Assembly (NCBI GenBank): GCA_036172245.1
Contig: JAYWIR010000142.1
Location: forward strand, 1-64,000
Origin: Raillietiella orientalis
Lineage: Eukaryota
DNA length: 64,000 nucleotides
Direction of reading: 5' to 3'
Both the position numbers and the translations under genes were made by a program. Positions 26,080-50,200 of the stretch are shown here, in pieces (position 1 is the stretch's first letter; every line of letters starts with the position of its first letter). The notes under the pieces are model-generated. The model did no database searches. It had not been told where the DNA came from and saw only the letters and a list, made by a program, of their open reading frames with translations.

Positions 26080-29000
26080 GGACATGTTTTTCTTCGCTCT
26101 CGTCTCCTGGCTTTCAACCGCTTCATCCTGGTGTCGTGCATTTTGACGACGATGTCGAGCCAACCCGAAGCTACTGAAGTTGGAGGAACAGCATCCGGAT
26201 CTGCAAATGCGGAACCGACGGCCGCCTCCACTTCGTCTTGCTTGCCAATGGCGAGAAGTTTTGCTGACGTTGCTGCCGCGGCAGCCGTCAAAGGGGTACC
26301 ATCAACGAGGCGGAGGTGCAGGCCTACGTAGCCCAGGGCTATAGACTTGCTCTCCGATACAAGGTGAGTGGCTTTCTTTCTGTTCGCGACGGTAATCAGT
26401 TCAACGATGAACTGACCCATGTTGGCGTGCGGTAGGAAGACCTTCTGGACATCATGCCCATCAAAAGCTTGGGATATTTCAAAGTGCGCTGCAAGGACGC
26501 GGCTGTTGTGCAACGCTTGCTGCGCACTCCTTTGTCCATCCGTGGTAAGAAGGTCTTCCCGTCTACCATGGATGAGTCGTTCGTGGCGGAGCTTTACGGC
26601 ATCGAACCGGAAACTTCCGACCACGAATTGCGGACTGTGTTAGCGAAATTCGCCACGGTCCATGCTCTGTGGAATGTTGGAAGTACCCTTAAGGACTTCC
26701 CATCCATCGTCAGCGGTAGTGCCGCGGTTCGACTAACCATGCCGAACCGCCGACTTCTACCCTCTAAGCAGCAGGTGAACGACACGGTCGTTCACCTGTG
26801 GCATGCAGGCAAGCCTCGAGTATGCGAGGGATGCGACGAAGAGGGGTATTATCCACAAAAGTGCCCTTCTGGTAAATGTCGCTATTGCAAGCAATCCGGG
26901 CACAACTTAAAGAATTGCCCGGACCTTGCTAGAAGAAAGGCTGCTGCAAAGCATCAGCATTTCTCCTAGCTGCCGCGAGGCGCGCGATTATTTTTTCGGA
27001 AACCGGAAAAAATAATCGCTTGCCTAGCGGCAGCACCTTGTCAGCGGAGAAACGCTTTCCGTGCGCACGATCGGAGAGCAAGCTCCCGACTGACAGGGAT
27101 GCGACCCCGACGGAGACGTCAACGCCGGTCGCGCATGCAGCGCCGCTGACGGCCGAGGAGTTAACCTCAGGAGTTTTCGCGGCGCAACAGGAGATCACCT
27201 CCGAATACGGCGAGAGCAAGTGGACGGTGGTGGAGAGGATCGGTAAGAAAAAAGCCCTAAAAAACGCTCCACAGCATCCGTCGAAAGCGCTCCAGAAGGC
27301 GAGGAACTCTCGAGTGATGAAAAAGACTCGCGCGAAAGTTCCTCGTGCAATATCGCGCTCTGATGCTGACATCGCGGGAGCTGTAAAAACAGCCTCCGAA
27401 AAAAGCGATGCCACATTACCAAAGGGCGCAAAAACGATCGCTGTAAAACGAAAAGACAGCCGTTGCTCTTCGCGTGCCGCGAAGAGCGAGTCACGCGAAC
27501 GCCATACGGACTCCGCATCGGAGAACGACCCGATTTCCGCACGTCGAGTAACTCGTTCGGAAACGCAGGCGCGTCGCGTAAAAGCCGGCAGGCGGGACAT
27601 TTCCGCCGCAAAGCAGCTTGAGTTCCCCCAGAAATCCGAGAAGGAGACACATGGGGTGGGCACCTCAACTGCATGCAGCACGACGGAGGACAGTGGCGAC
27701 CGTCCCTTCCAGCCGGTCGTGCTGCTCGCCGTCCGCTCCCCCAAAAAGCCGCCGCCTTCCCAACAGTAATGCGGGGAATCGCATCTTCTCGTCGTCTTTC
27801 CGTCGCGTGTTGGAACGTGAACGGACTGCAAACCGACGAGAAGAGGCGGTTAGTAGCCAACGCCCTGCGCCCCTACGACCTCGTGCTCCTGCAGGAGATT
27901 CACGTAATCTCCGACGAGCAGGCAGACGAAATCGAGGAGCACGCAGGCGGAACGCTACATTGGCGGTGTGGCGACGCCCACACGTGCGGCGTCGCGTTCC
28001 TCGTAAGAGGAAAAATGGCGAAAGCGGTGCGTGGTGTTTGTTTCGACGACGAAGGACGTATTGGCCAGCTTGTGATCAAGTGGTCCGAGTCCATCGATCT
28101 CGTCGTTACCAACGTCTACGCGCCGAGTGGCTCTCGCTACCTCGAAGAAAGAGTAGCTTTCTTTGGTGAGGTGCAGAGCCACTGGCTCAACAACTCAGGC
28201 CCCCAAGTAGCGCACCTCGTCGCGGGGGACTCCAACGTCCGTCTGCTCTCCGACGATTGGAGCCGCCCCAAGGAGCGCGCGCTGCCCATCGAGATGTGCG
28301 CGTCGGTGCACGCCGCCAACTTGATGGTCAGCGAACCTGGAATGGAGAGATCGCTCGATCACGTTTTCCTCGATGAAAACCTGCATTCGCGTGTGGGTAG
28401 GAGAGGAAGATTGTTGACTAGGCTTTCTGACCACCACAGGTTGGAGTTTGAGATCCTTCCGCCAGGCAGGGGGCCTCCGTTGCAAAACTGGAGGATGCAA
28501 ACGGATTGGCTTAGCCAACCGGAGGCTGCGGAGCTTCTACGTGGATACCTCCGAGGCTTTGCCATTCAAGAACTTGCGGACTGGGACGATCTCAAAAGAT
28601 CTATCCGCGAGTTCTGCTGCCAATTCCCCTTGCACCGGCTTCCACGCGGTTTCGGAGAGGGTGTGGCCAACAGTAGAGACTTTTTGCAGGCCCGCACGTT
28701 TTCGAGACGCGCCGATGTCGGGCGTCTCGCAGAGTACAAGGCGAGGGCCGAGCGCCAGGTCTGGCAGTCCGGAGCAGCATGCCTGTTGGACGACAAGGGC
28801 CAGGAATGTTCGGCCCCAGCCGAAGTACGCCGCATTGTGAGACGCTACTACTCCTCGCTGTACGCGGAATACCTGACGAAGGATATTCTCTCTAAGATAC
28901 TCCTGTTGCCGGATGCTCCTGTTGTCGGCAAGCAGGAACGCGAACGTGTCAACGAACCCTTCACGGCGGATGAATTCTCGTCCGCCATTTCTGGGCTGAA

Positions 29001-30260
29001 GAGACGAAAGGCTCCAGGCGAGGATGGACTCCCTGCAGAGTTCTATTAGTGCTTTGCAGTGGAGCTCATCCTCTTGATGATGAGACTCGCAACGCTGATG
29101 AGGGAATCCGGGAACGTCGTGCATTCATTCCGCTCAGCGTAGGTGCGTCTCCTGCCGAAAGGCGGAGACTCGCGCCAACTTCACAACTGGCGTCCGATCA
29201 TTTTGGTAAACTCGGACGTCAAGCTGTTTTCCAAGCTGTGGGTTGCGCGGTTAGGAAGTATCGCGGAATCTCTGGAGAGCCCGGAACAAACCTACGCTGT
29301 TCCCGGACGATCCATGGAGGCGAACATCTTTTTCGAGCGTACCTGGGTGCAGCTGGAGGAAGTCGTGGCTCATCAAAGCCTGGCTGAGGCGAAAGTCACA
29401 GCCGCAGGCAAGTAGAACAGGCGCCGAAGGGAGGGCGGAACGCCAGGTGCCTTGGCTGTCGCAGTCGACCTCCACATGGCGTTCGACTGTGTAAACTAGG
29501 GGCTCCTCTTAAAGCTTCTGGAACGCCTTGGATTTCTGGCGCATCTCCTGCTTTACTTGCGCGCTTGCTGGCGCCACGCGCTAACCTGTATTTCTTTCAG
29601 CGGCTGCCGCGTGTACGGTATTCTCGTGCGCAGAGGCATTCCGCAAGGTGATAGCTTAAGCCCGTTACCTTTAGCATCTTCTTTGAGCTGGTGCTTAGAG
29701 CATACAGGCTGACGCTGTCTCACTTGCCAAGTTTCTGCATGGGAACGCCTGCCGTGTCCGCCTACGCTGATGACCTGCTTCTTCTGCTCCCCATGTCCAC
29801 CCCGGCGTCCAGTGTCGAAGATTTCTTCGACCTGGTTCGTCGTGGAGAGGGCGTGAGCGTCAATAGGGAGAAGAGCGTGGTCGTACCGGTGGGTGCGTCG
29901 TAAGAGGGGCAGTCAGACTGGATCCGCCTAGGGATCCCCACGGGCGGGTACTTTAAGTACCTTGGCGTTCCGCTGGGCGCTCTCGGCGCAGCCAAAGCGT
30001 GGTCGGACTGCCTTCAGAAAGCAGAGTTGGCCGTCAGCCCGTTCATCAACGGCAAGTTTACCTTGCAGGAACGGGCGACTATTTGGAACACCTTTGTGGC
30101 CATCCTCCTCCGTCCCCTTTTTTTTGTTTTGAACCCCCCCTATGCGCTCAAACAGCGGGCTAAACGCCTGCTTAGGAACGCTCTCTGGGGTCCAACAAGA
30201 TCCAGGATTCGCCGTAAAGACTTGGCTGCTCCACGTCGGGATGTTGGTTTGGCGTCTGCC
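26080..30260 (+). mobile_element. Largest LINE copy (family B): ORF1 about 26150-27769, ORF2 from 27769 with APE and RT, 3' part missing
   Basis: ORF1 knuckle CRYCKQSGHNLKNC. APE motifs WNVNGL, LLQEIH, NVYAPSG, AGDSN, LDHVFL and SDH. RT motifs NWRPI, AYADD and KYLGV. Several stops and frameshifts. Confidence 0.95.
27769..29049 (+). pseudogene. APE endonuclease and linker portion of LINE ORF2, open for about 426 codons to a premature stop
   Basis: Uninterrupted frame with the APE motifs recognisable; ends at KAPGEDGLPAEFY* just before RT. Confidence 0.9.
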
Positions 30261-32734: not shown

Positions 32735-35637
32735 TGTCACGCCGGGGCGTTTATTAAAAAACACTTTACATTTGCGGTACTAGGCCCCGCTACGGCCAAT
32801 ATTTCATGGGACCTCCCAGGAAGCCGGTTCTGAGGTTAGCTTGTCCTCCTCGGCAGCGGAGGGGGTAGGGGGTAGAACAAAAAGAAAAATAAATGAAATA
32901 ACAAAAAGAAACGATTTGGGGGGCCGGGAAGGGATCACAACCCGCTAGAGGAAGAGACTATTTTTTTCAGGATGCCCTCGAGGTCCCTCGTCATAGCTTC
33001 TAGATGAAACCAGCCGATCGCGATTTGCAGGTAGCGACCCGCATGTACGATGGGGTCCCTGTCGCTGCTTTCTCTGTTGGCTGCGTTCCAGGCGGCCACA
33101 ATCCCTCAAAGGCAGCAAAGTGCTGCCAGGGCTGAGGCTGGTGTCAGGGCGTGTCGCACGAAGAGGAGTCTCACAACGTCTCTGGGGGTACTGCCGACCG
33201 GCATAGGGAGGGTCGTAGCAAAACGTTCCCACGAGGGCCGGAGGGTAGCGCAGTCCACTAACAGATGGGGGAGGGAATTCTTCTCCCCGCACACTGCACA
33301 GTTCTGCCTTACGTTGCCCAACGTCCAGTGGTGGCGGCGCGTATTGCAGGGAAGACCCCAGTGCAACAACAACAGCGCCGTTTCCTGCCACTTGAGGGGA
33401 AGGGTGGATGCGTCTCTAAATAACGGGGGCCACTCTAGGTCATCCGCCGGGATGCCAAGCAGCTCGCCCTATCTCCGTATTCCATGCGGGTGAACGCTTG
33501 GGGTTGCGGCGTCTGCCAGTTCCCTCATTGTCCACCCGCTTAGATCCTTCTCCTTGCCCGCTATCCAGCAGGAGACTTGCCATCTCGGCTTCCGGCTGTT
33601 TTGAAGCGCCCTTCATAGGAAGGGCAGCGCCGTGGCAAGTAAGGTCGTCTCCGCCCAAATGCTTTTGGCGGGAGACACGATCATGTTCCGCAGCGTGCAG
33701 CGGGTGTAGATGCCGGTGCGCAGGCGGTTGCAGGATTCTCCACTGATGTGTTTCAACTTTGCCCACGTTCCAACTGTTTCTTCCAGCCATGCGCTGGAGT
33801 TGGCGGAGCTACAGGTTATCCACCCGTTCTCCTTTGCCAGGGTGGCCATGCGTCCCAGAAGAAGTCCGCATCTTCTTATTTTGCGGCCGGGGTACAGAAG
33901 AAAAGACGCGAGTCCTTTAGTCCCGGACACACGTCCGGCGAGAAGGCGGGCTGGAACGCACCAAGGGGTGTTCCACATTTTCGCTGCGATGGCGAGGGTT
34001 CTCCACCGCAGCTGTGTTTCCATTCGCTCCATCGTCAGGACGCTAAGACCTCCGTCCCGACGTGAAGCGCACAAATCCTTTAAAGGCATACGAGGCCTCC
34101 CGCCGCCCCACAGGGCGATGCGTAGGAGGTCCTTTGTTCTTTTTTTCAGTTCACGAGGTACGGGGCAAACAAAAAGCAGAGGGCGAAGGAGGGGGGCCGC
34201 GAACGCGTTCCACACCGCGGTACGTTCCGGCGAGTGAAGCTTGCCTCCCAGGAACGGGCCGATCGCTAACTCCACCTTTTGGAGACGACCTGACCAGGCT
34301 TCTGACTGGCAGAAGTCCCCCAACGGAACGCCGAGGTACTTCAAGTACCTCTTCGTGGGGATCCACAAGCGGATCCAGTCAGGCCGTCCGACCCACGTCG
34401 CACCAACCGCTACCACCGTTGAATTTGCCTTATTTACCCTTTGTCTAGTCCCGCGGCTTAGCAGAGCGAAGAAATCCTCGCCTGCGGCTTCCAAGGAGGA
34501 CGTGGGCAAAAGGAGCAGAAGATCATCGGCGTAAGCCGCTACGGCCGACGTACCTGGACACGAGCTTGGCAGGAAAGCCAATGTCACCCTGTATGCTCTC
34601 AGCACCAGTTTGAAATAGGTGCTAAAGGGCAGGGGACTCGGGCTGTCACCCTGCTGGATGCCGCGCCTCACCGGCACGCCGAACACGTGCTGTGCTCTGA
34701 AAAACAAGTTGATGATCGCATTGTGCCAGCAGGCGCGCAGGTAGACCGTTAAGGTGTACGGGAAGTCCATGCGATCCAGGAGCTCCAGAAGTAGTTCCTG
34801 GTCCACGCAATTAAACGCTTTGTGCAGATCGACTGCGATCGCTAGAGCCCCCTTCCCTTTCCGGTGGTCGCTTACTTGCTGCGCTGGCGCCCCCAAATCA
34901 AGTTTGTCGACATTCCATTCTCTTTCCAAATTTTTCTCGCGTTGCACATGGAACCATGTGCTGTCGAAGAACAGGTTCGCTTCCATGCTTCGCCCGAGAA
35001 CAGCGTACGTCTGTTCCGGGCTGACGAAGCTGTCAGCTACCTGCCCCAGTCGCGAAGCCGACAGTCCAGCCAGCAGCTTGGCGTCCGTGTTCACAATCGT
35101 GATCGGACGCCAGTTGCATAATTTTCTGAGGTCTCCTCCCTTAGGAAGGAGCCTCACCCTGGCTGACCGAAACGAGGCGGGAACATCGCCTTCGTTTCGG
35201 ATCAGCCGTGTCAATTGGAGCACAAGGGGGGTCAGCTCTGCAGCAAAGCACTAAAAGAACTCCGCCGGCAGGCCGTCCTTCCCTGGCGTCTTACGCCTCT
35301 TGAGCCTTTTAATAGCGGTGATGATTTCACCAGTCGTAAAAGGCTCGTCGAGGCTTTCTTTCTCCTCCTTCCCTATGGCCGGGGCTCCATCTGGGAGCAA
35401 GCGCCGCGAAACGTCCCACTCCGAGGGTACCCTGGCGTGAAGAGGGGAATAATAACGCCGCACGAGGTGCCGTATTCTAGCCGGAGCCGATTGTTCCCGG
35501 CCCTGGTCGTCCAGCAAGATGACCGACCCGGATTGTCAGGCTTGACGTTCGGCTCCGGCTTTGTACTCGGCCAAGCGACGGATGTCAGGGGTCCTCGCGA
35601 AACAACGGACGTGCAAATACGCCCTTCCGTTACGGAA
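32735..35637 (-). mobile_element. Family A ORF2 (linker, RT, CCHC) with 3' UTR and terminus
   Basis: The 536-aa open piece 33613-35223 has the full RT motif set. CAVCGEKNSLPHLLVDC at 33106-33372. Terminal AATAAACGCCCCGGCGTGACA at 32755-32735. Confidence 0.95.
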
Positions 35638-37637
35638 GGACGTGTTTTTCCGTTGCTCCGTCAACAAGAACCGGGAAGCGGTTTCTCCTTGGGAAGTGTG
35701 TTTCTTCACATGGTTGGTGTTCGATGGCATCGCTGCCAGAGGACACCACGATGGAGGTAGGCGTGGAGGAGGGTAGTCCCTCCCCACGGCCTACTGGATC
35801 AGGGGCATCCGCCCCGGAATCATCCCCGGCAACGCCGAGGACTTGGAGCGCCATGGTGGCCGCGCCGAGCGCGGAAACCTTGGCGGAGCAAGCGGCTTAC
35901 AGAGCCTCAGGATATAAACCATCTCTGGTTTACAAGGTAGGACCCCTGTTTGATGGTCGCACCGCTCGGGCCTTTAGTAAGGCACTACAGGACTTTCCTG
36001 TAAGAGAAGAGGATCTTGACGGCTTCTCCGTACTCAGCGGGGGGCAGCGCGTGGAGGTCGTCTGCAAAGACGAAGCCTTAGCACAGCGCCTGATAAACAT
36101 CCCGCTGAATGTGGATGGCCGGAAAATCCTACCGGTTAGCATGGACCGCTCCGTAGTGGTCCACTAACCGGAATCACAAATCGGATGACGCGCTCGGCAG
36201 TCAATTCCGAGTTGATGAAATACGGCGAGGTACACGCGTTGTGGCCAAAGCCCACCATCTTCGAAGGCTTTCATAGCCATTTCGGAGGCCAGGCTGCAGT
36301 GAGTGTCACTGTCAATGAGGGTGCTGGGTTGCCCCACAGACTGGAGGTCGCGAAGGAATCCGTCGACCTCTGGTACGTGGGGAAACCCCGCTATTGTGGC
36401 TACTGCAATGCAGTAGGGCAATTGCGCAAGCATTGCCCGAACATTGAGTGCCACTTGTGCGGGGTTAAGGGACACGTGCGTTGTGTGTGCCCTAAACGCC
36501 CCACCCCGGTGCCACCTGCTGCCAAAATAACGCAGGCCAAAAAAATGAACAAGGTCGAAAGACCTAAGCGAGAAAGTGGCCGGCCCCAGCCGCCATCTCC
36601 TCTTTTTCTTACCCAGGCGTTGGAGTATAGAACCGCGGAAGACGCGGAAGTGGAGGAGGAATGGCAAGTGGTAAAGGCCAGGAAGGAGAAACAAATGGTG
36701 AAAGAACCACTGAAGATAACAGAGAAAAAGAACAAGGCCGGCAAAAAGAATAAAGCCGCGCCGCTGTCAGAAAAACTCCGCGGTTGCTCGGTAGCACTGG
36801 ATCGCGTAAGCGTTCCTTAGGCTGCCACCCGGGGCGACGAGCCTCCCCTCGTCGTTTCCGCCGCACCTGAAGTTCGCGACGACGTACCCTCTGTTTACAC
36901 AGAGGGTGGGCCCCGCGACGCGTGCGCCGACGGAGGAGCTCGCGGTCACGCTGGCCGAGCGTCAGAATCCCTCACGCAAGGCCGTGCGCAGGCCGGCTCC
37001 GCCAAAGAAGGCCCCCGAAGGTGAGTTCGACCTGGGGGCCGAAAGTGCATCCTCGTCCTCGGAGGCACCCCCCGGAAGACGGGATGTAAGTCCCAAAAAT
37101 CGAGGAGGCGCCTTCCCTCCACGAGCGAGGAGAAGCCGGAAGCCGATGCTAGCGTGGGAAACCCGGAGGTGGAATTCCCACGCACGGAAGTCGTCGAGCA
37201 GGCCACCCCCATGGAGGAGGGTGAACAGGGGGGCGAAGTCCTCCCTGTAGTCGCCGAACCTGAACAGCCCGCCCCCATGGAGGAGGGCGAACAGGGAGGC
37301 GCGACCCCACCTTAGGGTGAACCGGCCGACGCGCCGTTACCCATGGAGGAGGGGGACCAGGTGCCTTCAGCACCTGACCCTCCCCCTCCACATAGCGTCC
37401 CGCCCCAACAGGTGGCAAACGCCGCAGAGCCAATTTCCCAGGAATAACACCTGGGCTCGCCTGTCGCCGTCGGATTCGCGCGGCCAGTTGGAACGTCAAC
37501 GGGCTGCGCGACGACGGCAACAGACGAGATACGGCCGACACCCTTCGTGACTTTGACCTGAACCTGCTGCAGGAGATCCACGTGATCACCGCGGCAGACG
37601 TCCAGGAGATCGAGACGATCGCAGGGGGTCGGCTATT
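35638..37637 (+). mobile_element. Family A 5' UTR, ORF1 and start of APE
   Basis: GGACGTGTTTTTCC at 35638; MASLPEDTTMEVG; CGYCNAVGQLRKHC and CHLCGVKGHVRCVC; SWNVNGL...LLQEIH at about 37480-37580. Confidence 0.93.
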
Positions 37638-39669: not shown

Positions 39670-40790
39670 GGACGTGTTTTTTGGTGGCTCCGCCAGCGAG
39701 TGTCTGAAAAGCAACCTAAGCTTGTTCACTTTAGTGTAGTGTTTAGTGTGGATCGTCGGTGTCCAATGGAAGCCTTGCCAGAGGACATCGCGATGGAGGT
39801 AGGCATGTGGGAGGCGTGTCCTCCCCCACAACCTGCAGAATCAGGGGCAACTGCCTCGGGATCCTCTTCGCTGCCCGCGAGGAGCTGGAGCGTCGTGGTG
39901 TCCGCGCCAAGCGTGGAGGCCATGGCAGAGATGGCCGCATATAGGGCCTCCGGATACAAGCCATCGCTTGTATATAAGGTAGGCCCTTTATTCGACGGCC
40001 GGACGGCCCGCGCGTTTGCAAAGGCTCTAAAGGCCGCAAATGTGAAAGAAGAAGATCTTGACGGCCTCTTCATCCTCAGCGGATGTCAGGGCGTCGAGGT
40101 AGTCTGTAAAGACTTCACCTTGGCCCAGCGCTTAATTTATAACCCGCTGAACGCAGATGGCCGCAAGATCTTGCCGGTTACAATGGATCGCTCCGTGGTG
40201 GTCCATCTTACCGGCATCACTAACCGCATGACGCGCTCTGCTTTTAGTGAACAGTTGAATAAATATGGAGACGTGTATGCGCTGTGGGAGAAGCTCACGA
40301 TATTCGAGGGGTACAGCAGCCTCTTCGGAAGTCAAGCCGCCGCGCGTGTTACAGTGAAAGAGTATTGTGGGCTTCCCCACAAACTCGAGGTAGCCAACGA
40401 GGACGTCGACCACTGGTACGTGGGAAATCCACGTTATTGCAGGCACTGCAATATAGTAGGTCACCTCCTTAAGTGGTGCCCGAATATTGAGTGCTACTTG
40501 TGCGGGGAAAAGGGAGACGTTCGTCGCGTGTGTCCGAAACGCGCCACCTCGGTACCGCCTGCAGCCAAAAAGGCGCACGCAAAAAGGAAGAATAAGGTCG
40601 AAAAACCTTAAAGAGAAAGTGGCCAGCAGCAGCCGCCAATCCCCCTTTCCCCAACAAAAGTGTCTAATTAAACAGTTTCCGAAGACGTGGGAAACGAGGA
40701 GGGCTGGAAGTTGGTAAAGGCCAAAAAGCCATAACCGGCTGCGAAAGCCGAGAAAAAAACGGAGAAAGTGGCGACCGGCGCGATTCAAAA
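39670..40790 (+). mobile_element. Family A 5' UTR and ORF1, 3'-truncated
   Basis: GGACGTGTTTTT at 39670; MEALPEDIAMEVG; CRHCNIVGHLLKWC and CYLCGEKGDVRRVC. Confidence 0.92.
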
Positions 40791-41482: not shown

Positions 41483-41630
41483 ACAGTTGAAGGCAGAGGA
41501 AATCATGACGATTGGGCGCAGAATATTAGACGGCTGCGGTGCAAGCATGGGCAAAATCCATAACAAAGAACAGCATAGGAAAAACGGTAACATGGACAGA
41601 GGTCAAGTGATTGCCGAAAATACGAAGGAT
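41483..41630 (+). repeat. Second copy of the 5' end of the 43.2-45.7 kb ORF
   Basis: 41483-41516 is identical over 34 nt to 43274-43307. Similarity continues (EQHRKNGNMDRGQVIAE vs ERHSKNGNTGRGKVVAE) after an in-frame 39-nt indel. Confidence 0.9.
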
Positions 41631-43190
41631 GAGTCGACCGTCGGCGGACACCGAACCGACGGCCGAGATCCCCCTTACCACGGCAGCGTGTCCCTCCTGG
41701 TGTGGAGCGGCGTTTCAAAACTTGGTAGGCTTGTGTACAGACTGTGGTTCAAACATCGTACCGCTCGTCTGTGGTTGAATTTCCCCCTCGGGGCACTCTT
41801 TGTCCTACCCAAACGTGGCCAGAAATCAGTGTCCGCCGCCGCGAGCGCTCGTATCGTGGCGTCGCTGGGCGTTTTCAAGTCTCAAGGTCGCTTCTCGGCA
41901 ATATTTCCCCTCATTAAGTGCTTATCGCCTTGCAATTGCAAGGAATTTATACACTTTGTACCAAAATCTGTTATTCGAATCGAAAACAACAAATTCTTTT
42001 AAGCGTTTGTGTGGTGCAATTTCAGCAAGGTAAGGACTTGAAATTTAAATTTTGTTTTCTCCGTAAACGATTCGCCTGATAATCTGACGTTGAGTTTTCA
42101 AATTATCGGCCTTAGGAACTTGAAATCTTATCTCAACTTGCTTCCTAGTGATTTTGAATTCAAAATTTTGAAATGAAATTACGTTCGTGATCGCGTTACC
42201 GCGCAACGCGAAGTCCGATGCAAGAATAAGAAATTTTTATTTGCAATGTATTTGATAGAAAATTCAAGTCTAAATACTTCTTTAAATTGTGGAACATCTG
42301 TTAAGATAAATATCTGTGAAAGAAAATATTAATTCCATGAAACTATTATTTTGTGAAATGTAAATAAAGAAAATTAGTAGCGACATCTGCAGTACATAAT
42401 AAACACTAAAGAGTCATTACTATTAGTTGTTCGAACATTGGATTACGATAAGTTTTCAATTAATAACTTTGAATGCTGTGTTTATCTAAGCTACAAAAAG
42501 TAGCTTGATATAGTTTTCCACGCTTCCAATTAGATAAAATAGAGAAAAATCCAAAAAAAAAACCCTGCTGCTCTCTATTCGTCAATTCGATCACTAGAAT
42601 TTGTCGACCGTGCGAGTTTGTACGCCGAATGAGGTCATCATGCTGTGCGTTTGGTATTTCGGTTTATGCGTTCTTTACCTCACATTTTTGATTTTCGGCT
42701 TATCCAACTTTGCTCCCCACGCCTAATGCCAATGTTTCCTTTCTGAGAATTCTTTGGTTTATATTCGTTCCGTTGAGTTCGCAATTTTCAGTGGAGCCAT
42801 CTCTGGTCTCATCTTGGAACTAGGGTCGAATTTCCAATTCAATGTTTTCTTCTCCGATTTCTATCGGTAAGATTTATTCCACCTTTCGTTTGACATCAGT
42901 ATTCTTTTCGAATCCCGTCTCATCGTTTTGGCGGTGATTTTTCTGAAAATGACGCATTTCTTGTAAATTCTAGGTTCGCCATCTACACGAATTATCGTAA
43001 ACTAGTTTTGGATCGTCATTGAACTGTCTTTTCATTTTTCATCTTGAATCTTATTTTACAATTTTTGTTTGCATGATTTCCTGATGTATTCTTCGATTCC
43101 TTAGGCCTTCTCCTAGCTTCGGACATCCATAAATTTTATTTTATAAATTCCCGACAAGTTGACGGACGCATTCCAAGCCTGCGAAAGTTT

Positions 43191-45728
43191 TTGCAGCATC
43201 TTCCTCTCTTCAATTGCTCTAGCCCTTCCAAAGGCGAAGTCTGCAGTCCGTTCAAGGAGTTGCATCCGACAGGACAGTTGAAGGCAGAGGAAATCATGAC
43301 GATTGGGAGCAAAATATTAGAACGGCATAGTAAAAACGGTAACACTGGCAGAGGTAAAGTGGTTGCCGAAGAGAGGAGTAAATGCTTTGTCCATGGAGAG
43401 TTAACCTCGTATTGGCCAAACGACAACCAGGCTACATACCGTCGGGGATGTCTGGAAGCAGAAACATATTCTGTTGTAACGGAATACAGTCAGTGCCTCA
43501 GATTTGTTCACAACAGCCGTACTGTACATCAAAGGATAGATAGCATTGCCAATCCGCGCAAGAGTGACACACTCCGCGTAAACCGCGAGGACTTCCATGT
43601 GGCGGTAACGGAGCAACGGATACTGAAAGTCAATAAGGCAAGGGTGTCGCAGAAGAAAGTGCCCGTTAGCAGGGACGACCTGACAAACGCTCTCATCAAC
43701 GAAAATTATTGTGCAGCAGTCGAGGAGCGTGACCAGTTGGTCAACTATCATCGCACCTTTATCGAGACGATAACAACCTCAAAAGTTTGGAACAAATATC
43801 CATCACGAAACAACCACTGTCTGCAGAAACCTTCATGGGTAGCCGTCAGTCAAAATGAGGAAATAGAACACGGTGTCATACAACTAAAGTCCACCGCAAG
43901 ACCAGTACAAAGTGCCACGTTGTTAGGTGACATGCAGATTAACGATTCTCGGTGGTGTAATTCGAGGCTGGATAATGTGTGGTCGCCAATCTTTGATACG
44001 CCCATGGCAGCGTACGGAAAATCTGACAGGAGAAGTCTGCGGCTGAAACCCAGCTTGTATGACATCCAGGATGATAATACGTGGACCGAACCATCGGGAT
44101 CGGACTATATGTTCTCACCCAAGACGGAAAGAAGAACTGTCAAGACCAAGAGGATGAAACGTTCACCCTTCCGAGTAGTAGCAATAGCTCTTGCGCTGTG
44201 CATCATCTTCCATCTGCTATACCGACTTTATGATAATTACGGCATCTTCAACATGGTACAGAAGGGATGTCGTACAGCAGAGGACACAGAAGGCACACCC
44301 ACCGAGAGCGACGTGCTCCACCGTCGCACGGCATCGTTAGTAGACATATACAGTCCCGTGACCGATATAGTACTGCTCAGAACTGACCATACAGCGGAGG
44401 CAATTCATATCGCCAATATAGAAATACCTATACCAGGAAATGCATCTGATTTGAATGAAATACCGTCCGTTCAAGTGCTGGACGGAGGACCAATAATCGA
44501 CGCTTGTGCAACGGAGGTGATGCACTATGATGGCAAACTCACAAAGATTCTCGATGGACATTCGAGACCGACGATGGAGATAGAATTGAACTGGGGAGAG
44601 ATGGAACAGCTGGCGGGCATCTCGACAGTCCGTTTTACGCCTAGGGAGGAGATGGGTGTAGATAATAACAAAAATTACCTATACGCTACGGAACATGACG
44701 GAGAGGGCAAGAACATAGTGGAACTAAGGCGAGATCCCGACAAGCAGCTGAAGACCAGGCTCTATGACAACAACGGCCATGACGACTCTGTAAATATACT
44801 GGACCAGACCTTTACGAACCGAACAAAGGCCAGGAGTTATCCATGCCTAGTCATAGGTTCGTGGAATTCCGTCTCAGAACTGTTGATCATGTTCTGTATG
44901 GGGGACTACACGGTATTTAACAAAGAACCAAAGGAGACGGTTCGCAAATTTTTGGATGCATCAACACTAGACAAGATCTACAGAGAGAGAGTTAAACGTG
45001 CAGCGGTGGAGGAATGGAGAGAAAGCAGCGGCTTCGCTGACGACATAATGATGCAGCAAATCAACACCAATTATGCTTTTGACTGGGAGCTAATACTTTC
45101 CTCCCCGGGGAACGGAAGTATATCTTTGGAGCATCTTGCGAGGTATATGGTAGTCGGTGAGACGGTACACTGGCAATGGGATATTTGGTATCACCATGTG
45201 CAACAGCCTACATTGACGGGTATCAGGCTAGGCATCACACACAGTTGGGATGATATTACATCAGGAAACCTGTTGCCACTGATAGAGACGGAAGTGGGAC
45301 GATTTGTACATAAGTGGAATTATCTGTGCGTCAACAAACTGAAAATGCAAGACGAGAGGGGCTACGATGAGCTTCTCATGAAAATAGACACATATACAAG
45401 TAGGCATAATGTCACCATGCTAAACACACAGGATGGGACGGAAGACAAATCGTGGCCGACCGTGCTTGAAATGCAAGGGCGCAGCAAGCTGATGAAGGCC
45501 ACTGGGTACGAAGGTGGGCACTCCGAGGTCAGCGGAATTTGTCAATCATGGGTATGCGGTGTCAGAACATATGGAAGAGACTGTCACACAATGGCGTTGA
45601 CGACCGCTGTGCTTACTGCTAACTTGTCGGAGGACATCAAACATAAGGTCTGCAACGAGTACTATAGCTGGAGAGTCAATACAGCCATCAATGTAAACGC
45701 CGGTGTCTGGAGCCCATTGGGTTTTTAG
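43191..45728 (+). CDS. Intact intronless ORF of unknown family (845 codons from TTG; first ATG at 43296); candidate endogenous viral element
   Basis: Longest ORF in the window, with globular composition, an A-rich sense strand and no TE motifs recognised. Ends G GGT TTT TAG. Homologous fragments lie on both sides. The ORF is well supported; the product is not identified. Confidence 0.8.
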   Translation: MQHLPLFNCSSPSKGEVCSPFKELHPTGQLKAEEIMTIGSKILERHSKNGNTGRGKVVAEERSKCFVHGELTSYWPNDNQATYRRGCLEAETYSVVTEYSQCLRFVHNSRTVHQRIDSIANPRKSDTLRVNREDFHVAVTEQRILKVNKARVSQKKVPVSRDDLTNALINENYCAAVEERDQLVNYHRTFIETITTSKVWNKYPSRNNHCLQKPSWVAVSQNEEIEHGVIQLKSTARPVQSATLLGDMQINDSRWCNSRLDNVWSPIFDTPMAAYGKSDRRSLRLKPSLYDIQDDNTWTEPSGSDYMFSPKTERRTVKTKRMKRSPFRVVAIALALCIIFHLLYRLYDNYGIFNMVQKGCRTAEDTEGTPTESDVLHRRTASLVDIYSPVTDIVLLRTDHTAEAIHIANIEIPIPGNASDLNEIPSVQVLDGGPIIDACATEVMHYDGKLTKILDGHSRPTMEIELNWGEMEQLAGISTVRFTPREEMGVDNNKNYLYATEHDGEGKNIVELRRDPDKQLKTRLYDNNGHDDSVNILDQTFTNRTKARSYPCLVIGSWNSVSELLIMFCMGDYTVFNKEPKETVRKFLDASTLDKIYRERVKRAAVEEWRESSGFADDIMMQQINTNYAFDWELILSSPGNGSISLEHLARYMVVGETVHWQWDIWYHHVQQPTLTGIRLGITHSWDDITSGNLLPLIETEVGRFVHKWNYLCVNKLKMQDERGYDELLMKIDTYTSRHNVTMLNTQDGTEDKSWPTVLEMQGRSKLMKATGYEGGHSEVSGICQSWVCGVRTYGRDCHTMALTTAVLTANLSEDIKHKVCNEYYSWRVNTAINVNAGVWSPLGF
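45719..45728 (+). promoter_or_regulatory. Candidate -1 ribosomal frameshift heptamer G_GGT_TTT immediately before the stop codon
   Basis: X_XXY_YYZ pattern in the correct phase; the -1 frame stays open to TAA at 45944-45946. No stimulatory structure identified by eye. Confidence 0.5.
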
Positions 45729-45969
45729 CTACGACTCAAGAAAGCAGCGCGACTCATACATTAGACAACACGAAATTAAAGACGAATCATGGCGACCGCC
45801 CCTGTATAGAAAACGTGTCGGAGACTGGCAGCGGACGGACACCTGGGCTGAAACAACCAGAAGTGGTCCAGGAGAAAATCGGCTCGACTCCACAAGATGC
45901 CGATCGCAGCGCCGACCACAGAGAGACACAGGGAGTGACGCTGTAAATGACCAGGCAATAAACCCGACT

Positions 45970-46710
45970 GACGCGTTACCTCCCGGAACCTTCGGGCTAA
46001 AAAGAAAGGGGATACTGTTCGTGGCGAGTCGCTGTGGCTGTTGGTGCACCTGCGATACACCCTAGCTGAATGTATAGAGAGTTTCAGAATGTTGTGCGGT
46101 CATCAGACAGAACATCTAGATCTCTCCCTCCGCACAAGTGGACTCGTTGATTATTACAACGAGGTCACCAGGATCATCCTCGCAATCCCCTCGGCGAATC
46201 GGCGCTCTATCGAGTTAGCGAGAATCGCATTGGATGTTCCAACAACCATAGCATTGGACAACTGGATTCCGGCGACCAGCCTCGATCCCGAAGAGCAGCA
46301 TTAAGTTGCCCCTTGAATTTAAAGGGGGTCCTTGACCGCTTCCTTGCCTCAAGGGTGCCGGATGGCCTCAACTGGGCGGAGGTCAACATGCTGTTGACCT
46401 CACTGTTGACCTCACGTTTCCCCTTCCAGGTTGCGGCATACAAGAACAGACTCCTCGAGGTTTAGTGACATTGTATCAGGGAGCTCCGAAGGCAATTCTA
46501 GAGAACATGTACCTGACAGACTTCGGGGATGACTTTAAAGCGAGGTTGTACGGGCAAAATGGGACGGTCACCTGTTTCGATCAAGTCCCCATCTCGGAGG
46601 GCGACTCCCGGAGAGCTCCCATAATGAATTTGGGTCGTGGGTGCTGATAATTTATGCTGAAATCCTTGAAAGCAAATTTGTGATAAACCTGTGGTTTCAC
46701 TGGAATGGGG
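45970..46710 (+). pseudogene. Diverged, frameshifted homologue of the central part of the 845-codon ORF
   Basis: Collinear blocks: VHLRYTL/FHLLYRL, RTSGLVDYYNEVTRIIL/RTASLVDIYSPVTDIVL (10 of 17 identical), LNWAEV/LNWGEM, KARLYGQNG/KTRLYDNNG and GSW/GSW. Confidence 0.8.
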
Positions 46711-47078
46711 AGAGCCACCGCGGTGGCCTCAGAGATGGGTGGCTACACTGTGCAAACTCCGACTCTCAAGGTCCCTTCCCCCCCACCCATCGGCAACGTC
46801 ACGCAGCCAGCAGCGCTTGCGTCGCCCTGTCAGCTGCCAGATGGAAGCACAGGGAAGCCATCGAGCGGGAATCGGAGATCCGGGTGTCCATCCAGATTTT
46901 CTCTTCTCCAGGAGAGTTTCCTGCAGGAGGAGGGAGGGGGAGTTCGGCATTTGCACACGGCTCGGAAGGAGAAAATCCTCGGCGGAGGGCTAACCTCAGG
47001 AAGGGGCGATCAGGAAAGAGACTGACTAGGACTCCCTTCGTGGGAGGAGGCATCATCATCCTCTCTGTCTGCTAGAAG

Positions 47079-47243
47079 AGTTTCATCAAGCACAAGAGCC
47101 TTGATATTGTGAGTAATCAAAGTTTTACGTGCAATATGGTCTATAATACTACCAGGATTACCTATTACAATTCGCGGCTTTTTTCTTAAATGATTTAGCT
47201 GCTTGAAGATAGGCTCGCCACCAATTAGTAAGGCAATCTTCAA
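47079..47243 (-). pseudogene. Bacterial-type DEAD-box RNA helicase fragment (GG motif to motif II), Rickettsiales-like
   Basis: LKIALLIGGEPIFKQLNHLRKKPRIVIGNPGSIIDHIARKTLITHNIKALVLDET; sharply AT-rich against GC-rich flanks; TPGR decayed to NPGS. Confidence 0.8.
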
Positions 47244-50200
47244 CGGTGTGCTGGTCAGGGAGTAGGTGGGTGGGTATCCGGGAAGGTGTGGGCCGCTGGA
47301 CAAACATCGCTTCTTCGGGATGAGGGATGGCTCAGGGCAAATCCTGCAAGATCTACAAATCACAGTCCTGGCAGATGACTATGCGGGGTGGAGAGCCGAT
47401 TCCCAGAGGAAACGCGGGGGCGATCCACGGCACCCACCGCCTTCACTGAAGGGGGTCCCAGCGAGAGAGGGCATGGAAACCGTCCCGCTGCCGAGAGAGA
47501 CGGCTTGCCCGCGTTTTCAGCTGAGACGCCCCCCGCCTTTCCCCGGCAATCGTGGGTGAGAGAGCATGCCTTTTTTTTTTTTTTCTTTCAGTCCAGAATT
47601 GTCCGGAAAACCGAAAAAGAGAAGCAAAGTGAGAAGAGAGGAGGGAAAGAGGAAAAGGGCAGCTCGAAAGACGGGGAGCGGCGACTGCAGGCCGTCGAAA
47701 AGTCTTGATCCCACTGCCCTCATCACGCGTTCCTAACTTTCGTGAGCGCCTCTTTTCGTTATTGCGAGGGAAACCGGCCGAGGAAGGAGGCGAAACTCTC
47801 TGGATTAACCACCCGCATGCGGAAGAGGAAGAGAAGGGAGAGAAAGCTGCCAGCAACCTGGAATGAAAAAATTAGGAGCTCTGTTTCCCGGGCGATGCGT
47901 GCGGATCGCAGGAAGGAGGGCAGGTTCCGAGGCGGCGGCACCTTCGGCCGCCTTTGTCGGTCGGTATCGTGGGCAGCTGGCTCGCGGCTGGGCGCCTTCG
48001 CAATCAACCTGTGCAGGCAGTCACGCACACACCTAGTGTGTGAGGACAAGCATCGCTTAGAGGGAGAAGGGGGGGGAATTCCAGAGATTTCGAGCAGGAG
48101 CGAGCGGAAAGGAAGAAAGCCGACGCGCGACTCAGGAGGGACGGATGACAGTTGTCCTCGCTGCTTTCCCTGGTGAGAAGAGGGGACAGGAGGTAGAGGA
48201 GCAGAACCCGAGTTGCCGCTGCCATCTCCAGAATGGAATGCCCCGTATCAAACACCGCCTCGAGTCCCAGGACAAGGTAGCCCCTTTTTATCAAATCAAG
48301 AAGGGGGAAAAGAAAGGGCAAATCCAAGGGGAAGCAGACGATGGTTCCTCCCTCCCCTTCCGTGGTCGTATTCTCTCTCAAGAAAGGTTACGTCCGGCGT
48401 GCGATAGATCCCTGTCTCGGAACGACGATGACGACGACCCACGGCGCTAGAGAGAAGCAGCAGCAAAAAAAAAGAAACGCCCTGTTGCTGCGCGACGACT
48501 GATCGTGGTGGCGGCAAGAAGATTTGCTCTCGAATGCCCAAGATGATCGTAGAGTAGGTCCAGCAAATGAGTGATTTTGCCCTCACGGATACTGCCCGAA
48601 ATCCGAAGCTCTATTTACGTCCAAAATGACACAAATTTTCAGCATGGCGCCTATTTGCATGGATGTGTTGGTGATTCTTGAAACACCGTGTGCGCTCTTT
48701 ATAAGCAGTGGTATCCCTCCTTGTAGGAAGCGTAGTGAGAGGAACATTCTAATGAAAAAATAAGCATGCGCGCAATCTCATTTATCTATTCCTATACAAT
48801 GTCTTACGTGTACAGATAAACACATGTGCCCACAATTTGTGCATGTGAGTTCACTAAAGTCATCCGCTTCGTTGGCTGCAGTTTTCACAGGTGATCCGTC
48901 CAAAAGAATGTCATGGTAACAAATATCCCAAGAGTACCTTGTTAGCCACTCACAGAGAGTAATCCTATCTGTCACAGTACATTGGCTTGGCTACATCCAG
49001 ATGTGGCGGACACAAAACCGAAGAATTCCGATGAAATTCTACGCTTTCCATAGGCATCATTTTGAAATTCCGTGCGGGAAGCTCTTGGTGAAAGAAAAAA
49101 TGGTTCCTCCGGCAATCTGCTTGAAGTTCCCTGAACTTCCAGCAGCATTAACTCGAGCGCTTTCATTCCTGTTGTTCAGAAGAGGGAAGCAGCGGAGAGG
49201 AGTCGGCGAGCTTCACGCTTCGCGAGTGTCCACCAGCGTAGGTTCCACCCACTTCACCATGTGCTTGTCGAACCTGAGGTCTGTAGGTCAAGTGCAACAG
49301 AAAGGCGGAAGAAAGGGCTCTCGTCAGAGTTCAGACAAGCCTCTGATCTGTGGCATGAGCAAAAGATGCAGTCCTCGGAATGCTGGTCATCACAAATTCC
49401 AGAGGATGGTTTGAAGGCTGGTCAGCAAGTGTCATTGCGTGCAAAAAGAGTACCGAGCTCCTGAAAACTTGAAGTTTTGAGGGTACTGGAAACTCCGAAG
49501 CGATCCTTTTATTCATTCCAAGCAGCTGAAGACAACTGAGGCTCGCAATGTTGCGAGCAACAGACCTACAACCCATGATTGATTAATTAAACACTGCAGT
49601 TATCAAACTGTTGCACCATAGTTGCACGAATCCAGGCAAAGTCGCAATCTTTACGAAGCACCAGTTCACTCCAAGTGGAATCAGGACGCGTTGTCCTGGA
49701 TTGGAGATTAATCCTCCCGCTCGCGTTTCCAAAACAGAGTGGGAATCAAGGAATATTGCTGAAGCCCTTTTTCAATGCCTCGCGCGCTTCTTTCACTCGT
49801 TGGGTCTCCCATTGCGAAGATGATTTGTTCCGAGCTCTCTCCTATTGTGGATTCCACACGTTATGATCAGCCACCATTTTCGTCCGCTTCTGCTGCGCGT
49901 AAGATACGAGGAACATCCGTTTTCATGCTGGAAAAGGAAGCATCCTCGCCAAACTCGAACTGAGCAGTTCCGCCGATTTCCTGGAAAATTCCTGGTTTTT
50001 GAATTCTGCGTGTCCGCTGCACCTCCGGAATGGATCATCTTCGGATTGCTGTTATCCAAACAGACGCGGAATCATTCAATGTGCGAACTGAAATTTTCGA
50101 GATAACGTACCGTGTGCTCGACGACCTGTACAGATAGTCATTTCCCCTTTGAATAAAGGATGTGCGTTCTCGTCCAGTCTTCTATCAAAATGATTGATTA

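Follow-up and report, generated by a model that had tools for sequence, protein, structure and literature searches.

A probable DNA copy of a toti-like virus capsid gene, open over 810 codons, in a transposon-rich stretch of the Raillietiella orientalis assembly

We analyzed a 64,000-nucleotide stretch of DNA from the eukaryote Raillietiella orientalis (GenBank assembly GCA_036172245.1, contig JAYWIR010000142.1, positions 1 to 64,000, forward strand), hereafter called the window, focusing on an open reading frame (ORF) of 810 codons on its plus strand that runs from an ATG at 43296 to a TAG at 45726–45728 and whose product we designate P0001. This ORF is a near-complete major capsid protein (MCP) gene of a toti-like double-stranded RNA (dsRNA) virus, integrated in a transposon-rich genome. 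At the level of the whole locus, we regard it as very probable that a retrotransposon-rich eukaryotic genome here holds ORF1's 3′ two-thirds, copied into DNA from an unsampled, arthropod-type toti-like dsRNA virus; the copy spans the region from ~16 residues before the cleavage site that releases the MCP to the stop codon of the viral ORF1. An initial annotation, made from the sequence letters without database searches, had proposed a toti-like ORF1 or capsid gene in a host genome, and this proposal was borne out by the agreement of sequence homology, predicted fold and motif positions.

The open reading frame and its toti-like relatives

The 810-codon ORF lies within a stop-to-stop frame of 883 codons (43077–45725), the longest open frame of the window, where the runners-up reach 545, 475, 392 and 364 codons. 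Under the local base composition, the probability of 883 consecutive open codons is ~2e-22. The neighboring elements are broken transposon pieces, confirming the initial description of an intact ORF of about 810 codons from its first ATG amid broken elements. The same annotation called the ORF an orphan, and P0001 indeed retrieved nothing from Pfam, a PDB sequence search, a word-index search for protein homologs or the ESM Atlas. The label proved only partly right, as an exhaustive phmmer scan (HMMER being one of the checks that the annotation had suggested) of 1.84 billion representatives recovered 59 relatives at E<=1e-3, including ORF1 and coat proteins of toti-like viruses, with 17 at E<=1e-10 and a best value of 2.5e-26.

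These relatives share 22–37% identity with P0001 and are encoded on contigs of ~7 kb. Most are 1,000–1,700 residues long and match in their second half, with residues ~295–780 of P0001 aligning to ~730–1400 of the relatives. Among 30 clusters that were looked up, 10 carry toti-like virus names, 2 derive from hymenopteran genomes (Ceratina calcarata and Mischocyttarus mexicanus), 3 are ‘hypothetical proteins’ from JGI and 15 are nameless. The named clusters comprise Linepithema humile toti-like virus 1, Fushun totivirus 3, Bactrocera minax totivirus, Corcyphos virus 2, Zeugodacus toti-like viruses and Hubei toti-like virus 18, together with entries explicitly annotated as the ‘coat protein’ of Totiviridae sp. 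2 and of Nilaparvata lugens toti-like virus 1, the ‘putative capsid protein’ of Solenopsis midden virus and the ‘capsid protein’ of a Totiviridae sp. In the reverse direction, tblastn with viral ORF1s covered the ORF over 43800–45626. The ORF had looked like an orphan because its long relatives themselves have no Pfam family: none was detected in any of 24 long viral ORF1 relatives (24/24).

Two observations on the relatives extend beyond this locus. First, the toti-like clade appears as a gap in current family libraries, although its fold is clearly that of a totivirus capsid. Second, some relatives reside on contigs too long for a toti-like virus, namely P0039/P0072 (8.8 and 28.8 kb) and P0016 from M. 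mexicanus (50.6 kb), while P0066 is an annotated insect gene, LOC108628409 of C. calcarata; other genomes probably hold more endogenous viral elements (EVEs) of this capsid family with long ORFs.

Predicted fold of the encoded protein

An AlphaFold2 model of P0001 built on a 62-row family alignment reached a mean pLDDT of 74.3 and a pTM of 0.82. The initial annotation had suggested a structure prediction followed by Foldseek; in the PDB, all nine matches at E<=1e-3 were capsids of Omono River virus (OmRV; 7d0k, 7d0l, 6s2c) or Giardiavirus (8r0f, 8r0g), and the tenth match dropped to E 0.41. Structural alignment with VIA-align placed model residues 14–788 on OmRV chain residues 798–1597, with Z scores of 14.1, 13.5 and 12.8 for 7d0l, 6s2c and 7d0k over 568–583 residues at ~5 Å root-mean-square deviation (rmsd). 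For Giardiavirus, model residues 10–790 were aligned to chain residues 74–895 (8r0g and 8r0f, Z 12.5 and 12.3, 624–639 residues, rmsd 5.3–5.7 Å). Matches to yeast totiviruses were lower, with Z 7.5 over 409 residues for L-A (rmsd 5.8 Å, model residues 28–787) and Z 6.5 and 6.3 over 401–415 residues for L-BC 7zuf and 7qwx (rmsd 6.1–6.2 Å, model residues 27–781/787).

In BFVD, a collection of predicted viral structures, 42 matches were found at E<=1e-3, led by toti-like capsids with values down to 2.2e-40; this agreement is not independent, given that the model itself was derived from aligned members of this family. More independent is the match to the OmRV and Giardiavirus capsids of solved structure, because the capsid regions of these proteins are undetectable by sequence. 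When the family profile was compared with OmRV ORF1 (9thi), only the cleavage motif was recognized and the capsid region went undetected. Taken at the level of the predicted model, the structural comparison shows the 810-codon ORF to encode the whole MCP shell fold.

The initial annotation had also considered a membrane or envelope-like protein, on the basis of one hydrophobic stretch and an RVKR motif. The stretch has 16 residues and follows basic residues, so that the pair could be read as an anchor and a cleavage site. Both features have a different identity in the family alignment. The hydrophobic stretch, VVAIALALCIIFHLLY (44175–44222, plus strand, residues 294–309), is a conserved capsid core motif that aligns with the viral WILSHLxYPL, with L307 at an invariant column, and in the AlphaFold2 model this region forms a strand and helix within the folded shell domain. 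The RVKR tetrapeptide (44988–44999, plus strand, residues 565–568) lies in the most conserved capsid helix of the family, which spans residues 557–578 in the model and in which D559, R563, R568 and E572 are nearly invariant; the last arginine of RVKR is family-invariant. Since both features align with conserved motifs of non-enveloped virus capsids, a membrane anchor and a furin-type site are ruled out. With residues 14–788 also superposing on solved icosahedral capsid subunits, an envelope-like protein was rejected and retains virtually no credibility.

The cleavage motif and the 5′ boundary

The N-terminal end of P0001 coincides with a landmark of toti-like capsid maturation. In our alignment (A1), residues 9–17 (ERHSKNGN) stand opposite the viral ORF1 motif HNxExHxxNGN, and the HSKNGN at residues 11–16 (43326–43343, plus strand) represents a remnant of the capsid-maturation cleavage motif. 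The profile derived from A1 matches the cleavage motif twice in OmRV ORF1 (PDB 9thi). In OmRV and infectious myonecrosis virus (IMNV), the MCP N-terminus is reported to arise by cleavage after an NKxMHxxNGN-type motif, the OmRV capsid protein starting at Pro789, directly behind the motif (PMC7968656). In the structural alignment, P0001 residue 14 is opposite OmRV residue 798. From the motif remnant and the start of the structural alignment, it follows that the ORF consists of ~16 leader residues plus essentially the entire mature capsid protein.

The upstream edge of the viral-derived stretch was located with the help of a small duplicate. The repeat search, blastn and global alignment showed that the element's 5′ end is duplicated over 143 nt at 41483–41625 (plus strand). 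The duplicate shares with the ORF the ATG and the 22 nt before it, followed by the full motif HNKEQHRKNGN and then unrelated sequence; the 22 nt common to both copies (41483–41504 in the duplicate, 43274–43295 before the ORF, plus strand) mark the 5′ edge. Relative to the motif region of the duplicate at 41505, the P0001 gene lacks 39 nt, an in-frame gap of 13 codons, and over ~100 aligned bases the two copies show ~6–8 differences. Searches with the viral ORF1s P0019, P0014 and P0064 by tblastn gave a match at 41526–41600, within the duplicate.

Some features around the duplicate are recorded here as side observations. It opens a 165-codon ORF (41505–42002, plus strand) that runs into unrelated sequence, and downstream of this ORF lies an AT-rich segment of 1.2 kb (42000–43270) with a GC content of ~40%, compared with 50–59% elsewhere. 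Splice-site-like sequences occur near 42029 (AAG|GTAAGG) and near 42973 (a pyrimidine run followed by TAG|G), and might conceivably delimit exons of a host transcript that runs into the capsid ORF.

The 3′ boundary and the frame break

Conserved capsid homology stops near residue 777 (nt 45626), and frame 0 terminates 33 codons later. Past the conserved part, viral ORF1s run for another 110–230 poorly conserved residues. The corresponding remainder in the window was found in the −1 frame, which is open over 45668–45943 and closes with a TAA at 45944–45946. At 45875–45931, this frame carries the C-terminal motif KIGST..ADHR.., and its peptide ends in KIGSTPQDADRSADHRETQGVTL before the TAA, reproducing the motif and spacing of the viral ORF1 P0021, which ends in AIGTTEQEAARSADHRAPTDPA before its own stop. 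By eye, we counted 10 of 25 distinct long relatives that end in K(L/P/I)G(T/A)..., then (N/S)(P/A)DHR, 6–7 residues and the stop. A motif hidden Markov model (HMM) was built from the last 26 residues of 10 viral ORF1s and scanned against 2303 six-frame peptides of the window; the −1 tail peptide ranked first of 2303 with E 1.3e-4, the next peptide scoring 0.18, and the match abuts the stop as it does in the viruses.

Because the −1 frame holds both the end motif and the stop of ORF1, the frame of the fossil must change from 0 to −1 somewhere within the 61-nt interval 45668–45728 (plus strand), over which both frames are open. Beyond it, the rest of the viral ORF1 C-terminal tail occupies 45729–45946 (plus strand) in the −1 frame, up to and including the end motif and the ORF1 stop. 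Viral relatives have the capsid domain and the tail in a single reading frame.

The frame-break interval includes the feature that had attracted attention to this ORF. The last codons read TTG GGT TTT TAG, and the heptamer G_GGT_TTT (45719–45725; 45719–45728 with the stop, plus strand), which lies in a G3T5 run, is in the X_XXY_YYZ zero-frame phase; codon phasing thus upheld the initial statement that the ORF ends in G GGT TTT TAG with the heptamer in the −1 frameshift phase. No other in-phase heptamer of its type occurs in the ORF, for which composition predicts ~2.2, and the per-site chance of an in-phase heptamer is ~0.003.

The initial annotation had taken this arrangement for a viral junction between the capsid and the RNA-dependent RNA polymerase (RdRp), in which the −1 frame would be the start of the polymerase ORF. 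Toti-like viruses are reported to place a slippery heptamer often a few nucleotides before the ORF1 stop (PMC8229945; PMC3542737), as would be expected of a relic of such a junction. Nevertheless, the −1 frame adds only 73 codons beyond the heptamer and ends in an ORF1-type C-terminal motif instead of continuing as a polymerase, at a point where viral ORF1s carry their 110–230 further residues. Moreover, Pfam detected no RdRp family among 220 window ORFs, including 92 ORFs of 45–119 aa in the 45.5–52.6 kb region. Together with the poor folding described below, these results contradict the proposed junction: the ORF1-type tail in the −1 frame and the lack of an RdRp among the 220 ORFs rule out a capsid/polymerase (gag-pol-type) junction at this position, and the heptamer is most improbable as its relic. 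If a relic of the true viral junction survives, it should be near 45875–45946. Searches with P0061 and P0008 for viral nucleotide sequences that would show the shift site retrieved no relatives from viral or metagenome contig sets.

A second possibility is that the heptamer works as a −1 frameshift site of a host gene, with most ribosomes stopping at the TAG and a fraction adding the ancestral C-terminal arm. The heptamer immediately precedes the stop and has the phase that slippage requires, a −1 slip would enter exactly the frame of the remaining viral tail and its conserved end, and the low per-site probability noted above adds to this coincidence. On the other side, no stimulatory structure was predicted in the 100 nt downstream (45726–45825) with a tool that does not consider pseudoknots, the minimum free energy being −9.4 kcal/mol compared with an average of −14.35 for shuffled sequences (z +1.66; of 200 shuffles, 193 were equally or more stable), and the arrangement would be new, given that viral relatives keep the tail in frame. 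We therefore consider a working frameshift site very unlikely. The same low standing applies to its most far-reaching form, a domesticated capsid gene under selection in which −1 slippage at G_GGU_UUU_UAG would regain the ancestral arm and stop, producing two isoforms from one mRNA. Were this true, a non-retroviral RNA virus would have given rise to a cellular gene with −1 frameshifting, comparable in principle to PEG10, which is retrotransposon-derived.

A third explanation places the frame break in the assembly rather than in the genome: a sequencing or assembly error in the G3T5 homopolymer, the true gene being continuous from 43296 to the stop at 45944–45946. The 61-nt interval does include the homopolymer run, the −1 frame continues without interruption exactly as far as the conserved end motif and the stop of ORF1, and long-read assemblies err most often in the length of homopolymers; with five T, however, this run is short for an error of that type. 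Among indexed sequencing runs, one DNA run, containing 9% of the words, and no RNA run were listed; this independent DNA run provided two 151-nt contigs identical to window positions 43884–44160, a coverage that ends short of the heptamer. We judge an assembly error to be unlikely, though worth keeping in mind. Overall, the heptamer is best read as the site or neighborhood of an indel in a homopolymer, possibly an assembly error, and not as a working shift signal. As a more general caution, a homopolymer indel can be all that lies behind a ‘slippery’ heptamer standing in phase ahead of a stop.

As a side observation, an AATAAA hexamer lies at 45957–45962 (plus strand), 11 nt past the viral stop, and could be a polyadenylation signal.

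Genomic surroundings and further toti-like pieces

A Pfam scan of the 220 other ORFs of the window identified six RVT_1 fragments, one Exo_endo_phos and one zinc knuckle, and as far as the assembly can be trusted, ORFs with these domains lie on both sides of the capsid ORF. Rfam gave no matches in the window and ARAGORN no tRNAs. Based on the retroelement fragments and the lack of RNA families and tRNA genes, the window is a transposon-rich stretch of a eukaryotic genome. Because of this DNA context, with transposons on both sides, contamination by an exogenous virus was rejected. In place of the ORF2/RdRp that a complete toti-like genome would have, a further capsid fragment starts at 46023.

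This second, broken toti-like capsid fragment (46023–46640, plus strand) was recovered by tblastn with viral ORF1s. It is distributed over three frames (46023–46280, 46292–46447 and 46471–46638), ends in stops and corresponds to residues ~300–523 of P0001, from the WILSHL to the IGxW motif. Searching the window with P0001 itself gave no match to the 46023–46640 fragment at E<=1, and because P0001 does not detect it, another viral lineage or integration is its probable source. The locus accordingly holds three toti-like pieces, namely the ORF, the duplicate at 41483 and the 46023–46640 fragment. Clustering of toti-like EVE pieces has been described in ants (PMC6540820) and planthoppers (PMC10636211).

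Regarding the origin of the locus, the reverse transcriptase of a neighboring retroelement may have copied a toti-like viral mRNA, the copy may have integrated, and the integrated copy would later have been partly duplicated. Virus production from this locus would not be expected, as the RdRp and the upstream ORF1 parts are missing, the shell domain has a gap of ~48 residues and the C-terminal arm has been lost. The shell-domain gap lies between the QPTGxxWA and WILSHL motifs, where ~48 residues present in all viral rows are absent from P0001.

Age, selection and possible function

To place P0001 among its relatives, we used a FastTree phylogeny of 30 rows, from which proteins shorter than 600 aa, the near-identical P0061–64 and P0068–71, P0007 and the unrelated reverse transcriptase P0067 were left out, with P0066, a longer member of the same cluster, standing in for P0007. 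At 2.68, the terminal branch leading to P0001 is longer than any other (median 0.98), and the placement of P0001 in this tree is poorly resolved. Of 64 family-conserved columns, P0001 matches 46 (72%), the lowest value in the comparison, with 28 relatives ranging from 75 to 100%, at an overall identity of ~20%. A neutral simulation of random substitution on the ORF (2000 trials per rate, indels not counted) left the frame free of stops in 37%, 12%, 5.3% and 0.65% of trials at 1, 2, 3 and 5% substitution, respectively.

These results bear on whether the ORF is open because it is young or because it has been maintained. The reading of a young fossil holds that the ORF is open only through recent integration and represents a neutral sequence, unexpressed or used solely for PIWI-interacting RNAs (piRNAs), with no protein function. 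The retention of 72% of conserved residues at ~20% identity fits this reading, since it implies that most of the divergence accrued under capsid-like constraint, as a virus. So do its position among broken repeats and other EVE pieces, which is usual for EVE clusters, and the frame break that the tail has already suffered. Conversely, several events appear to have followed integration, including the duplication, now ~7% diverged (an estimate from only ~100 nt, on the assumption that both copies evolved at equal rates), the 39-nt gap and the frame break, and at 3–5% neutral substitution only 5% to 0.65% of trials remained stop-free even before indels. The same duplicate divergence, 39-nt gap and 3′ frame break, along with the longest branch and the lowest conservation, suggest that the ORF is not brand-new. 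On balance, we lean slightly toward an ORF kept open by selection rather than by youth, while a merely recent, neutral fossil is a serious contender that falls somewhat short of probable.

Several considerations weigh against our interpretation of the locus. The conservation of P0001 is barely below that of the most divergent exogenous viruses, and the open frame would be accounted for just as well if a very divergent, unsampled virus had integrated recently. The ~48-residue gap may predate integration, having already been present in the donor virus. The arthropod assignment is provisional, drawn only from the hosts of related viruses, and germ-line integration, expression and selection of the ORF have the standing of candidates. 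Finally, the occurrence of an in-phase heptamer exactly at the stop is a coincidence not trivially dismissed.

If translated, the ORF would yield a capsid subunit devoid of its C-terminal arm, the element reported to fasten capsid decamers in OmRV (PMC7968656). If expressed, the truncated protein might co-assemble with the capsid protein of related viruses and poison their assembly; alternatively, the locus might serve as a piRNA template. The copy is a useful marker of an unsampled, divergent virus lineage and a reasonable candidate for a host gene derived from a capsid and co-opted, whether against viruses or in another role.

Comparison with known toti-like capsids and integrations

Integrated viral fossils of this kind are well known, and one so long and unbroken is uncommon. 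The ORF1/MCPs of arthropod toti-like viruses are its closest counterparts, sharing homology with P0001 over ~600 residues, the same predicted fold, and the same layout, in which the cleavage motif is followed by the shell domain, a variable tail and, before the stop, the conserved C-terminal motif. They differ in that identity with P0001 is only 17–29%, and the window copy is without the 400–900 upstream residues of ORF1 and without ORF2/RdRp, has its tail out of frame and consists of DNA between retrotransposon fragments. At a greater distance, the OmRV MCP (7d0k, 7d0l, 6s2c, 9thi) and the Giardiavirus capsid (8r0f, 8r0g) share the fold (Z 12.3–14.1, 568–639 residues), whereas sequence identity is 7–8%, with the capsid region undetectable by sequence and the cleavage motif alone recognized. 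As reported for OmRV, the MCP N-terminus follows an NGN cleavage motif, as in P0001, and the C-terminal arm of OmRV (PMC7968656) would have its counterpart in the out-of-frame portion of the window copy.

Toti-like EVEs are described as common in arthropod genomes, with at least one co-opted (PMC10636211). The planthopper toti-like EVEs (ToEVEs), including the co-opted NlToEVE14 (PMC10636211), and the toti-like coat-protein EVEs of ants (PMC6540820) are likewise capsid-derived non-retroviral integrations, reported as several fragments per locus or genome with some intact ORFs. By comparison, a single frame of 810 codons takes in essentially the entire MCP in the window copy, which is known at the level of sequence. 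These EVEs derive from the same virus group, and the coat protein of N. lugens toti-like virus 1 is among the relatives of P0001. Toti-like EVEs as such were already known; this one stands out by a near-whole MCP in one frame, from the cleavage motif to the end of the shell domain, and by the divergence of its donor lineage, whose identity to the viruses sampled so far does not exceed ~30%.

A cellular copy of a capsid gene is likewise found in yeasts that captured totivirus capsid genes, described in terms of a ‘counterfeit’ capsid and immunity (PMC6166632; STORM array preprint 10.64898/2026.05.24.726934). As presented in these sources, those cases differ in involving fungal hosts, true totiviruses and a tested function, and interference by the window copy would be an analogy to them.

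Other features of the window

Beyond the toti-like pieces, a 122-codon frame at 47013–47378 (minus strand) contains a ~55-residue fragment of a DEAD-box helicase (Pfam DEAD, E 1.3e-7). In the PDB sequence search, it matched bacterial helicases of the CshA/DeaD type best (E 8.4e-11) rather than those of the eukaryotic eIF4A/DDX type; part of a pseudogene and a fragment derived from bacteria are both conceivable. A repeat of ~725 nt is present in three copies (40000–40723, 35958–36680 and 527–1252, the last on the minus strand) at 71–72% identity, with ORFs that have no Pfam match; the copies presumably constitute one transposon family. The largest transposon ORFs are a 475-aa Exo_endo_phos frame, a long interspersed nuclear element (LINE) endonuclease, at 27622–29046 (plus strand) and a 545-aa RVT_1 frame at 33616–35250 (minus strand), the latter with a single relative, at 62% identity, in a database of 5.8 billion clusters.

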